Positions 5,711 through 55,289 of a stretch of DNA of 64,000 bases are shown piece by piece. Source of the DNA: Octopus sinensis. Taxonomy: Eukaryota. The translations under genes and the position numbers were made by a program. The notes under the pieces were generated by a model. The model had not been told where the DNA came from. It saw only the letters and a program-made list of their open reading frames with translations, and did no database searches. The stretch covers positions 186,001-250,000 of the forward strand of contig NW_021825710.1 in assembly GCF_006345805.1 (NCBI RefSeq), in the 5' to 3' direction. Position 1 is the first letter of the stretch. Each line of letters starts with the position of its first letter.

Positions 5711-6397
5711 TATAGTTTCGAGGTTTTTGCCTCTCGTCAACGTACGGTAATCACGGGTTTTCGATGAGGATAGACCTGTTTGCGAATATCTATTTAATGT
5801 TTTTCCCAGCAACCGCTGTCACTGATTTCGAAAAACTGTCTGAAAGCAATAATAAATCTCTGAACGAGATGTAAACAGTAACCCCTCGACAACGTAACGT
5901 ATACTAACCATCTCAATATGGCTAACCACTAAGGGTGGGTGTTACTGAAGCTTTTAGCCCCAGGAGATCATCGTCTCCAGCTGGCTTTAGACACACTTTC
6001 TGTGCCCACCCACCCTTAGTGGTTAGCCATATTGAGATGGCTAGTATACTTTACGTTGTCGAGCGTTACTGTTTACATCTCGTTCAGAGATTTATTATTG
6101 CTTTAAGATAGTTTTTTGAAATCAGTGACAGTGGTTGCTGGGAAAAACATTAAATAGATATTCGCAAACAGGTCTATCCTCATCGAAAACCCGTGATTAC
6201 CGTACGTTGACGAGAGGTAAAAACCTCGAAACTATAAGTCCGTGCGTATCACTTAGGTTTACGAGAGGGGATGACCTCCCTTTGCGAATATCATAAGGGT
6301 ACAGAAAGTGTGTCTAAAGCCAGCTGGAGACGATGATCTCAGTAACACCCACCCTTAGTGGTTAACCATATTGAGATGGCTAATATACTTTACGTTA
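5711..6397. repeat. Inverted + tandem repeat cassette carrying a hammerhead-like motif (Penelope pLTR/retrozyme-like)
   Basis: 5711-5940 is the reverse complement of 6008-6236; 6299-6397 is the reverse complement of ~5900-6005; a further partial copy lies at 7030-7140. Confidence 0.9.
6201..6246 (+). ncRNA. Minimal type-I hammerhead ribozyme-like motif (U3 variant)
   Basis: CGTACG-TTGACGA-GAGG taaaaa CCTC-GAAAC tataa GTC-CGTGCG: stems I, II and III all pair; core UUGACGA instead of CUGANGA. Confidence 0.7.
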
Positions 6398-8689
6398 TAT
6401 ATATACAGTAAATAAGAAAATGGTGAGGATGCAAAAACGACATACATCAGCCGGTTGACATTCTAGTATGTCTATTTATTCAAAAGTATTAAAAAGTAAT
6501 AGAATACATGCACATATAATAACTATGTGTTACATACACATGTACTAATATTACAGAAAAGAGAAAAAGAGCAAAAGATCAGATTGTCAGCAGGTTCTAG
6601 TTCCTTACGGCTGTTTCTGCCAAATCCTCCATGCCATCGCCATCTCTTCGGTGTTCTGCAGGGATGGGCAGATAAAGTTTGGATGATGAATGTGCCTCTA
6701 CGCTTGGACGAAATAACATGGATCTTGGAATACATCACGGGTAATCTGTAGTTTATTCTCCTTCCTATACCCAAATAATTTTAATAAGTTGTGCTTCACT
6801 AACATCCTCATGTTTGCTCCTATTCTTTTTCTGCCCTTTCAAAAAGACAAACACACTGCACCTATTGTTAACTGTTTCTTATTTGTATTAACCCTCCCAA
6901 CCACTTGGACCCTCAGAAGAAGCCTAGAGGCACATTCATCTTCCAAATACTATCTGCCCATCCCTACTGAGGGATGAAGATGGCATGAAGGATTTCGTTG
7001 CCTCTTGGCAGAAACGGCCATCTTTTGCTCAGTGACAGTGGTTGCTGGGAAAAGCATTAAATAGATATTCGCAAACAGGTCTATCCTCATCGAAAACCCG
7101 TGATTACCGTACGTTGACGAGAGGCAAAAACCTCGAAACTATATATATATATATATTTCAATGGATGAATGAATTATCCTATGTTTACCGTTAACATGGA
7201 AAATTCAATAAACCGTTACCAGGGTAGCAAAATTCACGTCAGAAACACGGTTGAAGCGACCTATCCAAAGGTAGAATGTGCAGTAATTTGTGTGTTATAA
7301 ATGAATAAATAAATAAATGGAGTTGAACGAAGATGTTAATAAAATTCTTTTACTTTCGACATATGTTTCGAAGACAACATGGTTTTATTCCAAAGGAATA
7401 AACGGTGTAAAATGCAATCTTCTCATCAGGAAAGAAAGAGAGCCTCTCTCAACAACAAGACATTATAGCAATTACGATGACTGCCTACATGATAAACAGA
7501 ACGTTATTAAGTATTTAAAAAAGCCGTTAGTAGATTTGACATCAAATATATAATATATAAGAGAGAGAGAGAGAGAGAGATCCAATGAAAGATGAATATC
7601 AGTTTATTACACATTACGAAAGAGCTACTAATAGTTTCATACTTTTAGGATATTTTAAATAGGTAGATTTATAAAACACGTTATGTATCTTCAAGCAATA
7701 TTTCAGGTTCTGTTTATGCGTTAGATATAGTTTAAAAACCAGGATGCTGGACAGTAAGAAGATAAGAAAAAACAAGAAGACAAACGCAAAGAAGATTGAT
7801 GCAAAAATAGAACGAGAAGGAAACGAAAGCAAGAAAATCAACATTCTCGTCCTCTCTCATTGCAGAAACCAATTAGTGCAGCCAGTGTAGAACAAAATAA
7901 CAGAAAATATACCAAATTCTACGAGACAGCAACTCAATCCGGAGTGGGTGGTGTCCTCTAGTTTGACAAAAGAAACCCGTCCATATGTTTGCAACTGCTA
8001 AAAAAATTACAGATCTGGAATTAAGCTGTGTGATGGAATTCTTTGTCTAAGAAGAATATGAGATCTTTCTGCTACTCATAAGTAGCAGAGGCATTAACAT
8101 ATGGCTTGAATTTTGATACGATTCTCCACTTAATAGTATGTGGTGTGGAGTTGGCCTTCAAACCCCATACGTGGCTAGCCAACTTAATTGCATAACTTTG
8201 GTCGATGTACCGGAGAGAAGATAGGTGGTTTGCACATATATATATATGCATGCATGTGTGTGTGTGTGTGTGTGTGTGTGTGTGTGTGTGTGTGTGTGCG
8301 TGTGCGTATGTGTGTGTGTGTACTCGGAGATGAACGGTTTTGACAGAAAGTCTAAAAGAAGTATAGCTTGTAAACCTGTAATTGTTTGCGTTGTAAGGCC
8401 ATGAGGTGATAATGCTTATAGAGGGAATGTTTATTGATTTTAACAATGGCTGAATGATTTAAAACAGCAGTAAGAACTGAATCGATCATTAATAAACTGT
8501 AATCTTAGTTTGTTCTAATATGAAAACTTCGGCCCATTATAGTCAAGTCCTGTGACCAGTATTTACAACGTTTATATATTATCTTGTGTGTCCGATGTAA
8601 CCAAAGTGATCAGAGGGCCCAGTAAACCTAGTATCTCGAACAAAACTACAAAAAATAAGTTACTATAGTGTCATTTTGATTAATATTAA

Positions 8690-8880
8690 TTTCAAATTTC
8701 GGGAGAGGGTTAAGTCGATCCCATCGACCCCAATATTCAACTGGTACTTATTTTATTGACCCCAAAAGATTGAAAGATAGAATCTACCTCGGTGGAATTT
8801 GAACTCAGGAAGTGAAGACAGACGAAACGCAGCTAAGAATTTCGCTTGGCGTGCTAGCGATTCTGATAGCTCACAACCTT
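8690..8880 (-). mobile_element. tRNA-derived SINE (same family as 3280-3905)
   Basis: CAACTGGTACTTATTTTATTGACCCC...GAATTTGAACTCAG...GACAGACGAAA. Confidence 0.8.
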
Positions 8881-9649
8881 GTAAGTTTGGCTAATATTGA
8901 TATTGGTTATTTACATTATCAGAAGGCCACGAATTTGAAGAGATACTATCTACTGAACCTTTCTATGCGAGGAAGGATGAAGAACAAATTGACCTTTAGT
9001 TGATTTGAACTCTCAACGTGGAGGGATGAAGTTTCTGCCAGCCCTTGTGCTTGGCTTCTAAATCATATTAAAGCTGTCTATTAAGTGAAATTATCTAACG
9101 ATAATTGCAGGCTGGATTGCATTGACACACACTCCTAGGAGCACTCTGCTACTATGGACTGTTAGGTTCTAAGTAACGCAGGGTCATACTTGACTTATGC
9201 GATTACTATTTAGAATGTTCTGTCTGTTAAAATGACAAACATTACAAATCTTATTACCAAATGACGCTTGAATTTTCACCTTTGGTGAACCACTAAAAAC
9301 ATTCGTACATTCGTACATTTTAGGAACAATCTTCTCTAGTGATTGTAAAATATCAATTTCATTACATTTCTACCATAAAATAACAAAACAAAAAAACAAC
9401 GCATTTTTAGTTTTGGGCATGACTGTATGAATTTTTCGTGCCTGCTGTATGAATGAGAACTTTGTAGACACTGATTTCGTATTCAGCATGAATAATCTTG
9501 TTTCGCTGATTTTCTGTGGATATTTCGTGTAATGTAACATTTGAGTCCCTCTTGGTTTTGTTCAGCGCTTAGGTTGTAATATCAGAGTCGCTAGACAAGT
9601 AAAGTTTACAATCATAAACAAATTTAAATGTCAATTCTTATACTAAATA

Positions 9650-53830: not shown

Positions 53831-54553
53831 ATACCTGGTAGCTTACTGGTAAAGCATGATCATTTCCACAGTGTTTGTTATGTATTTGGTCAATGAGAGA
53901 TGTTATTACCATGTTAGCTATATCAATCATTTCTACTATCACAATTTGGTGACTTAAGGAAAATAAAATTAAGTTTAACATTTGGTTCATAGTAAGGCAT
54001 GCAAAACCATAATATCATTTCCAGGAGATGCCGACTCTGTTCTGAGGAATCCTTGTCTATTCTGTGGACCAATGAGAAGATCATTAATAGAATTTCTGAA
54101 AGACTATCAAGATGTTTACATGTATATAAATGTACTTCCACACAATGCAGTGGGAATGAATTTGAGTAACTGTTAACATAACTTATTTTAAGGTATGGAT
54201 GAATTAAATTTAGCTGTTACCTCTCCATTCTTATAAACACCAAGTAGCTATTGAACTTGTTATGTGCATGTATGTACACCAAACCACATGTATATATGCT
54301 TACATCTTTGTGGATGTTTGTATGAGTGAGTGTACATGGGCCATACAACCTATGCACGGGCATTTATGTATCCATATCTATTAAGTTATATTTAATACTT
54401 TTTGCATTGTATTGCATGTTTGTTTCTTTTTGCTTCTGTTATTTTATTATTGATCTTCTATATAAATGAAGCTATATCCTTTAATTTGCTGCATTTCTTT
54501 ACACAAGCTAAGATACATTGTGGAACTATTATTTTAACGAGTTATATCTATTT

Positions 54554-54656
54554 ATCACCTGAAGAGACACATTTGCATTGTTGGATGCTCCTGAACCAGT
54601 TAAGTACCCCACCCATGAAGGATCGATGCTAGATGTGTCAAAACAATTATAGTGAT
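54554..54656 (+). ncRNA. Degenerate hammerhead-like motif downstream of Penelope relic
   Basis: ATCAC-CTGAAGA-GACACAT...ATGTGTC-AAAAC AATT ATA-GTGAT, then AATAAA. Confidence 0.6.
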
Positions 54657-54868
54657 TAATAAAAATTCCCGTGTCTTCCATCAATCATTAACCAAATATA
54701 TATATAACAGTAGTATAGTTTTCATGAAACATTGTCTCATGTATGTATATATATATATATATATATATATATATATATAGCAAAAATTTAGATTCAAATG
54801 AATATGGTACTTAATTTAGATGCACCAGAATTTTGTATGGTGTTATCCATAAAAATCCGTGAGGTGAT

Positions 54869-55289
54869 TATAATCAAAATAAGCAACAAGAATGACTCTG
54901 GTAATTTGGTACGATCGTTTCATACTACATTCTTTTATTAAATGTTGTAAGTATTACAACAGATTTAAGATGCTGAGTACTCATCAGCCAATTATAGAGG
55001 TTTTCATTAATACAAAAATTTTCAAATCAAGTGGCAACATTATAGAGAAGGTAGATATACAGACAAAGATGTGGATTTAAATTTTAAGAACATATGAGGT
55101 ATGTTCTTAATACAAAAATTTGCCACTTGATTTGAAAATTTTTGTATTAATGGAAAACCTCTATAATTGGCTGATGAGTACTCAGCATCTTAAATCTGTT
55201 GTAATACTTACAACGTTTAATAAAATGATGTAGTACGAAACGATCGTACCAAATTACTGGAGTCATTCTTGTTGCTTATTTTGATTATA
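54869..55289. repeat. ~170-bp inverted repeat pair, each arm with a hammerhead
   Basis: 54869-55037 is the reverse complement of 55120-55289. Confidence 0.93.
55167..55252 (+). ncRNA. Type-I hammerhead ribozyme-like motif, canonical core (inverted copy 54906-54991)
   Basis: TTGG-CTGATGA-GTACT...AGTAC-GAAAC GATC GTA-CCAA with extended stem II (GTTGTAA tac TTACAAC). Confidence 0.85.

Follow-up and report, generated by a model that had tools for sequence, protein, structure and literature searches.

Results

Hammerhead motifs in an octopus genome window

We analysed a stretch of 64,000 nucleotides (nt) of the Octopus sinensis genome (RefSeq assembly GCF_006345805.1, contig NW_021825710.1, positions 186,001 to 250,000, forward strand), hereafter the window, which is 37% GC and rich in microsatellites and in relics of LINEs (long interspersed nuclear elements) as well as of Tc1/mariner transposons. 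A dense archipelago of minimal hammerhead ribozymes had been predicted there from the letters alone. We found hammerhead-shaped motifs at all 17 coordinates of this original prediction and sorted them into families A to I. Our reading, held with high confidence, is that these minimal type-I hammerheads stand at the 3′ ends of truncated Penelope-like elements (PLEs) at 10 of the 17 sites, and that the other 7 lie in short non-coding repeats, which are likely served by the same Penelope enzymes.

A strict type-I descriptor gave nine matches in the window, compared with a mean of 0.18 and a maximum of 1 in 40 block-wise dinucleotide shuffles of it, so shuffled sequence does not reach a similar density. 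Eight of the nine were among the predicted sites; the ninth, at 7429 on the minus strand, was intact and had not been listed. Sites 26937 and 27299 were recovered once an extra base before stem II was permitted. The core was intact at 10 of the 17 sites, including 6201 with its U at position 3, and changed at the remaining seven: A6C at 22711, G8A at 28706, U4A at 31833, G12A at 32958, G12A plus a broken 15.2-16.2 pair at 54554, and ACGAUGA at 47348 and 47483, where the family F consensus is CCGAUGA. When the window was scanned against Rfam, the 107 matches at E≤5 included no hammerhead and were microsatellite artefacts. The Rfam result and the changed cores would suit an explanation by chance matches in AT-rich repeat DNA. 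We give this explanation a negligible probability, as it is refuted by the excess over shuffles here and in the wider genome, by stem covariation and by the fixed position of the motifs in PLE ends.

The wider genome (2.72 Gb) was sampled in 80 evenly spaced 10-kb blocks drawn from chromosome-scale contigs only. In these 800 kb, a relaxed descriptor, loosened after the window had been inspected, gave 40 matches, compared with 3, 3 and 5 in shuffles, which extrapolates to ~1.2 × 10^5 hammerhead motifs genome-wide. A slightly looser descriptor gave 42 matches, falling into 27 clusters. With 10 relaxed matches in 64 kb, the window has ~3 times the genome average (bootstrap P=0.016). At only ~3-fold, the density of the proposed archipelago is a genome-wide one and not specific to the window.

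The nine families were searched genome-wide, each with 1,130-4,015 first-look candidates, and the loci counted below are the 25-30 best matches to each window copy; each list opens with the window's own copy, and there is overlap between a few loci. The core was intact in 30/30 loci of B, 27/30 of C, 25/30 of E and 24/30 of D, with a U3-A8 variant in 15 of 30 A loci and C4 (CCGAUGA) in F. The tiny palindromic stem III foreseen by the original prediction was confirmed family by family (CG, GATC, AGCT, AATT, CCGG and TATA/TGCA), the stem III loop of B being the imperfect palindrome GTGC, and several families have long stem II inserts of 38-90 nt. The further claim that stems differ yet still pair was borne out in the E clade, where 94% of cells were paired across 12 variants and two-sided changes occurred in 5 of 18 pairs. 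The covariation score was 0.243, compared with 0.157 shuffled (0/500) and ≤0.097 when slid, for a structure picked by eye and a shuffle that ignores relatedness.

Hammerheads at the ends of coding Penelope-like elements

We identify the 10 sites of families C, E, F, G and I as 3′ untranslated region (UTR)/pseudo-long-terminal-repeat (pseudo-LTR) ends of 5′-truncated protein-coding PLEs, because longer copies run into a GIY-YIG open reading frame (ORF) in the same orientation. The link to PLEs had been proposed before; the ORF upstream in five families makes it stronger than the window's letters could. The accompanying idea of one non-autonomous population stands for seven sites (A, B, the B relative at 32958, H and D) and falls for these ten. 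That all families might be non-autonomous ribozyme-bearing retroelements accords with the short, non-coding form of most copies and with the lack of an ORF in A, B, D and H; we nevertheless hold it very unlikely, since it is refuted for C, E, F, G and I by the GIY-YIG frame of longer copies, and the window's own G copy retains the last endonuclease codons.

GIY-YIG relics, also foreseen, were found at 8090-8230 (-), 29185-29433 (+), 50676-50974 (+) and 52050-52427 (+). In longer copies of E, F and I, the GIY-YIG domain lies upstream in sense, and a search with a domain of this type returned 19,265 genome candidates. Relatives of E have reverse transcriptase (RT) plus endonuclease frames of 697-804 amino acids (aa). 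In one of them, locus L364, a 697-aa RT+GIY-YIG frame stands between two hammerheads 4.6 kb apart; this was the one locus with hammerheads in both pseudo-LTRs, an arrangement not seen for C, F, G and I. Pfam matched GIY-YIG at E=2e-4, just under the cut-off, and RVT_1 was present in 12-42% of the members among Atlas neighbours. Pfam recognised neither the window's GIY-YIG relics nor the PLE RT, and a PDB search gave nothing significant. Read by eye, the endonucleases of E, C and F contain CxCX5C, CxxC and CxH motifs, which match the Hydra clade as described in PMC8557442, and conserved E and N residues are flanked by CxxC and CxH in the Hydra-type endonucleases here. The sequences of C, E, F and I thus fit Hydra-type PLEs. 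Several stop-free Hydra-type frames of 500-800 aa suggest recent activity. In two frames of this type, L361:2892-5303 and L364:4025-6115, RT and endonuclease are separated by a very long linker rich in Asn.

Family C, at 44515-46420 (-), is a long 3′ UTR of a Hydra-type PLE with an intact hammerhead at 44667-44729, and it adjoins an inverted piece at about 46424-46607. Its endonuclease was found 2.3 kb upstream, past an internal microsatellite, together with an RT piece; a description of C as a 1.65-kb non-coding element was rejected on this finding. Next to it is a divergent C pair at 46605-46800 (-) and 46808-47130 (+), a 97% inverted repeat with one hammerhead in each arm. An old relative of C at 31434-32885 (-), about 70% identical to 44709-45657, has a decayed hammerhead at ~31833-31925. 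The family E pair is also divergent, with intact hammerheads at 54795-55022 (-, with tail) and 55136-55289 (+, ending at +41 in (TA)n), and we identify it from sequence as 3′ ends of a Hydra-type PLE. The family F pair, likewise assigned to Hydra-type 3′ ends, is convergent, at 47306-47470 (+) and 47468-47579 (-), its minus-strand arm stopping a few bases past the cut site. The relic at 52050-52427 (+) belongs to an F element: it is followed by part of the F 3′ UTR and has 85% identity to the endonuclease that, in locus L162, lies upstream of an F hammerhead. Family I, at 53950-54700 (+), is a 5′-truncated Hydra-type end with a decayed hammerhead at 54554-54656.

Family G differs in type. The window copy, at 21913-22891 (+), comprises the last ~29 endonuclease codons (21913-22000), then 3′ UTR with a loop-less hammerhead at 22711-22746 in which A6 is changed, and a short inverted end at about 22850-22891. 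Of 20 loci selected with the 5′ piece, 17 had the hammerhead 730-1080 nt downstream, and the element encodes a CX4CxxC linker and a YIGQTGR endonuclease, by which we read G as a 5′-truncated Neptune-type PLE. The unlisted strict match belongs to a tenth family, J, whose intact hammerhead at 7353-7434 (-) is probably the 3′ end of the PLE that owns the relic at 8090-8230 (-). Two relics, 50676-50974 (Hydra-type) and 29185-29433 (Neptune-type), have no recognisable hammerhead downstream, and neither the latter nor a PLE-RT-like frame at 23104-23445 (-) could be tied to any hammerhead of the window.

Element ends were compared across families. In every family the 3′ ends are fixed, at ~40-300 nt beyond the predicted cut site, and the 5′ ends are ragged. 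An inverted copy lay 5′ of the site in 13/30 loci of B, 12/30 of A, 12/30 of D, 10/30 of E, 5/25 of H, 3/30 of C and 3/25 each of F, G and I. Two discrete 3′ ends were clear for E (+41 and about +116), were also found for B (about +195-204 and about +290-298), and were not resolved for C, F, G and I. The expected preference for (TA)n tracts, against a background of ~11%, was evident in E (27/30), C (24/30), G (19/25), F (13/25) and B (13/30), weak in H (9/25), I (6/25) and A (6/30), and absent in D (1/30).

A repeat with a tRNA-like head and a Penelope-like end

Sites 26897 and 27294 are parts of one family D insertion, 26817-27387, set inside a 12-bp target-site duplication (26805-26816 and the same 12-mer at 27390-27401, both +) just past a Tc1 frame. 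It begins with an inverted arm at 26817-26960 (-), which contains a minimal hammerhead (core 26937) and an optional 25-nt tail ending at +84. A tRNA-like head follows at 26968-27045 (+), with A-box-like (26977) and B-box-like (27022) motifs, and then a body at 27046-27387 (+) made up of (AAT/ATG)n, a linker, a minimal hammerhead (27294-27339, predicted cut after 27334) and a 3′ end at +53. Across the genome the head lay upstream in 42 of 62 hammerhead-bearing copies, and the 3′ ends cluster near +59 and +84. Of 16 divergent pairs, 14 had the tail on one arm and not on the other, and a duplication of 9-14 bp surrounded both arms in 8 of 19 loci, compared with 5 of 380 mismatched controls. Tandems are almost absent, with a same-strand copy in 1 of 30 loci. 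D occurred in 10 of the 80 sample blocks, 8 of them with the hammerhead part, which extrapolates to about 30,000 copies. At four 5′ junctions (L042, L045, L052 and L317), arms that reach the 5′ end meet in a short palindrome of constant sequence (loop of 2-3 nt), which occurs in both orientations; this would suit a cDNA end that folds back on itself to prime the second arm.

We examined the head for tRNA ancestry. In one sister copy, tRNA (RF00005) was the best Rfam family, scoring 13.3 bits (E=1.7), which is under the gathering score; the alignment spans model positions 8-63 and has the A and B boxes in register. Long D copies begin at the position of tRNA base 1, and the top three weak phage matches to the head are tRNA genes. 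With relaxed ARAGORN, one anticodon loop recurred in 8 calls across 30 D loci, in a noisy setting that gave 29 calls in 150 shuffles at -ps80. Several results count against this ancestry: Rfam returned nothing for a second copy, default ARAGORN found no tRNA in the window or the 30 D loci, strict A and B boxes were present in 8 and 16 of the 30 loci, and comparison with the sole tRNA-like gene in the sampled loci gave no useful match. Taken together, a tRNA origin of the head is likely, although weakly scored. The alternative, that D is a short PLE derivative or retrozyme whose tRNA resemblance arose by chance, draws on the negative searches and the imperfect boxes; we consider it unlikely in view of the top-ranked Rfam family, the recurrent anticodon loop, the phage matches and the start of long copies.

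How D spreads was judged from its ends. The inverted arm, the optional 25-nt tail on one arm and the 12-bp duplication are Penelope hallmarks, so far as genomic copies reveal, and D likely borrows Penelope enzymes. It might instead be an ordinary LINE-dependent tRNA short interspersed nuclear element (SINE) with a captured hammerhead, its inversions produced by LINE-type priming or later rearrangement. Such a SINE would share with D the tRNA-like head, the short 3′ tandem repeat, the 9-14-bp duplications and the lack of a (TA)n bias, and the window has several LINE RT relics. Furthermore, no PLE helper for D was found: an endonuclease lay upstream in 0 of 67 matches, and 11 stretches downstream of other Neptune-type endonuclease matches contained no D-like motif. 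On the other side, the inverted arm of D duplicates the 3′ end instead of continuing the 5′ end, one duplication flanks both arms, and the one-armed tail is a feature called unique to PLEs in PMC11167929. The LINE-dependent origin seems to us quite improbable. D has no poly(A), and its ends are PLE-like in a comparison that included no LINE library. On balance we favour D as a Penelope-dependent SINE, a putative tRNA-promoter RNA of ~300-450 nt with a PLE pseudo-LTR hammerhead and both RT start sites, present in tens of thousands of copies in a genome with apparently still-active 592-nt retrozymes and ~10^5 hammerheads.

Retrozyme-like repeats

The five sites of A, B, the B relative at 32958 and H are retrozyme-like, with non-coding head-to-tail units of ~345-592 nt. 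Family B, at 39582-40598 (+), consists of 1.7 head-to-tail units of a 592-nt repeat ending in (TA)n, with intact hammerheads at 39719-39818 and 40311-40410 and a site-to-site monomer at 39813-40404. Its longest ATG frame is 36 aa. The 592-nt period was seen as a same-strand copy in 19 of 30 loci. The 40 best of 1,130 candidates were 99-100% identical over many chromosomes, arranged head-to-tail or inverted and often located in (TA)n. By this identity B is very young, and we regard it as a candidate live retrozyme. The monomer has a fold z of -6.1 compared with shuffles, and the hammerhead dimer, with an intermolecular stem III, is predicted at -52.4 versus -43.0 kcal/mol. The B unit (39582-40173) is also present in sequencing runs under five organism labels from 8 studies, with no RNA run among the listed runs containing it; among the contigs of four runs aligned to B, those from a second organism cover the unit with a few fixed differences.

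The relative of B, at 32886-33222 (+), has its hammerhead from 32958, ends in (TA)n and shares the B 3′ segment (80% over 110 nt). Family A occupies 6065-6396 (+), with a period of ~355 nt and a hammerhead at 6201-6246 (core UUGACGA, predicted cut after 6240). Its inverted arm at 5711-5882 (-) ends in hammerhead loop 3 and is a 97% inverted repeat of 6065-6236, and a fragment at 7029-7143 (+), 98% identical to 6122-6236, also ends at loop 3, followed by (TA)n. Family H lies at 28575-28790 (-), with a hammerhead at 28705-28747 in which C3-G8 is broken, and a partial inverted copy at 28813-28905. The 3′ segment was repeated one period upstream in 13/30 loci of A and, with a period of ~345 nt, in 2/25 of H; the two families have a 75-nt segment in common (82%). 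An endonuclease lay upstream in 0/47 and 1/104 matches of A, 1/88 of B and 1/103 of H.

Two further arrays were met outside the window. L293:3615-7153, in a sample block, is a fresh retrozyme-like array of a 535-nt unit with intact hammerheads, four copies head-to-tail and two inverted, the first two units being identical. L366:694-2397 is a tandem of four ~568-nt units whose hammerhead differs from that of B and whose 190-nt 3′ segment is 72% like B, so that a region likely recognised by the RT is common to several large retrozyme families.

Other features of the window

LINE RT relics, unrelated to the hammerheads, were found at 1-1651, 9618-12993, 41482-42289, 58135-59667 and 62884-63795, with an RVT_1 match at 58138-59667 (E=3.5e-29). 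Tc1/mariner transposase relics lie at 25729-26850, 34227-35269 and 43333-44332. A high-copy SINE-like repeat of ~385 nt at 53446-53830 is 94-96% identical across many unrelated loci. No hammerhead was found in an 83-nt tandem duplication forming long hairpins at 55473-55716, nor in a further inverted pair at 33494-33771 and 55737-56014.

Discussion

Several observations weigh against functional ribozymes or a shared Penelope machinery. For several single motifs the minimum-energy fold is not a hammerhead, and the covariation measure of further pair types did not exceed the shuffle (477/500). The very abundant PLE family G has U or C instead of A6 in 23 of 23 copies read, and the 3-8 pair is absent in most H copies, so these ribozymes may be dead or work differently. 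In G, the A6 change may be either a tolerated core variant or a sign that the ribozyme is kept only as structure; a motif related to G in locus L362 has A6. The endonuclease counts of E and G are inflated, those loci having been fetched with endonuclease queries. In ~2 Mb of the 2.7-Gb genome, we found no coding element whose 3′ end matches that of A, B, D or H. Finally, 5′ ends did not pile up at the predicted cut site as a trace of in vivo cleavage, falling within -1 to +2 of it in 4 of 130 A copies and in 0-2 copies of the other families. A large role of cleaved templates is disfavoured by this, in agreement with PMC11167929.

The insertion mechanism that we propose follows work on the Poseidon element PAc of Anolis (Frangieh et al. 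2024, PMC11167929). According to that paper, the Poseidon protein nicks AT-rich DNA and reverse transcription starts at two internal sites 3′ of the hammerhead, giving an optional tail; the hammerhead cleaves only with the protein, and insertion does not need cleavage. There the mechanism was demonstrated in vitro, for PAc alone; here it is read from end positions, and the two discrete 3′ ends of E, D and B match the PLE tail. By analogy, the RT-endonuclease of the octopus elements would nick AT-rich or (TA)n DNA, start copying the RNA into cDNA from either of two internal sites immediately 3′ of the hammerhead, and usually stop early, often laying down an inverted second arm. Nearly every stub would keep its hammerhead because the latter lies 40-300 nt from the RT start sites. 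For A, B and H, successive hammerheads in tandem transcripts might pair via the palindromic loop 3 and cut out single units, which would be circularised and copied for more than one round, as in the retrozyme model (Cervera and de la Peña 2020, PMC7229834). D would be transcribed by polymerase III and then copied in trans by PLE enzymes; its hammerhead, upstream of the RT start sites, is more likely part of the recognition signal than an obligatory cutter. Mobilisation in trans and cleavage as dimers are steps that we infer.

Minimal hammerheads of metazoan PLEs were reportedly also described by Lunse et al. Cervera and de la Peña (2014, PMC4209133) found them in PLE repeats by the thousands per genome, highly variable, mostly single and some as opposite-strand pairs 100-700 bp apart. 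The octopus motifs agree in having a type-I fold, a helix III that is absent or palindromic, an additional base ahead of stem II, the U3-A8 variant, many variable families and mostly single or opposite-strand paired occurrence. They differ in the long stem II inserts, the G family changed at A6, the CCGAUGA of F and the extrapolated count of ~10^5, compared with the ~2,000-9,000 quoted there. Inverted arms, tails and a (TA)n bias of PLEs are described in PMC8557442 (Craig et al. 2021), whose Hydra clade resembles C, E, F and I in its C-terminal GIY-YIG domain, CxCX5C, CxxC and CxH motifs, hammerheads and (TA)n insertion. Elements of that clade are generally <3 kb, whereas the repeat unit of L364 is 4.6 kb because of the long Asn-rich linker and the 3′ UTR (0.5-2.3 kb across families).

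Families A, B and H resemble the non-LTR retrozymes of PMC7229834 and Li et al. 2026 (10.64898/2026.07.22.740005), which are non-coding, head-to-tail and low in GC, with one type-I hammerhead per unit, are dispersed as monomers to multimers, and are proposed to be PLE derivatives; tRNA is not mentioned in the accessible part of the latter. Reported monomers are 170-400 nt, a range that includes A and H, whereas B (592 nt) and the arrays of 535 and ~568 nt exceed it. Further differences are the PLE-type inverted arms and two fixed 3′ ends of copies here. The nearest precedent for D is the SINE-like schistosome repeats Sm-alpha/Sj-alpha (reviewed in PMC6765202), where a Pol III-type promoter likewise precedes a hammerhead. 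Those repeats are tandems from which the hammerhead frees monomers, whereas D occurs as a single unit and combines a loop-less minimal hammerhead with an inverted arm and, optionally, a tail. The portion of PMC10886601 available describes tRNA-promoter parasites of LTR elements only. We found no paper on octopus hammerheads, and no report of a tRNA-headed, hammerhead-bearing, PLE-dependent SINE in a literature search that did not cover Repbase, Dfam, SINEBase or supplements, which may list these families. PMC13282606 lists hundreds of unclassified octopus SINE families, so a library may already contain D as one of these.

Collectively, most of the archipelago is PLE debris of a known sort, its density is close to typical for the genome, and such an assemblage is ordinary for an invertebrate genome rich in PLEs. 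Retrozyme-like families A, B and H are of a known kind, B being notable for its size and youth, and only the tRNA-headed, hammerhead-bearing element D looks new. The link between retrozymes and PLEs has so far been argued mainly from phylogeny and co-occurrence, and the insertion ends of family B would tie the two mechanically. SINEs have been defined as parasites of LINEs; if our reading of D is true, an element that joins a tRNA head to the tail, inverted arm and hammerhead of PLEs would bring SINEs a third class of helper. It would also offer a natural substrate of very small size with which to probe the role of the PLE hammerhead, a question left open in PMC8557442 and PMC11167929.

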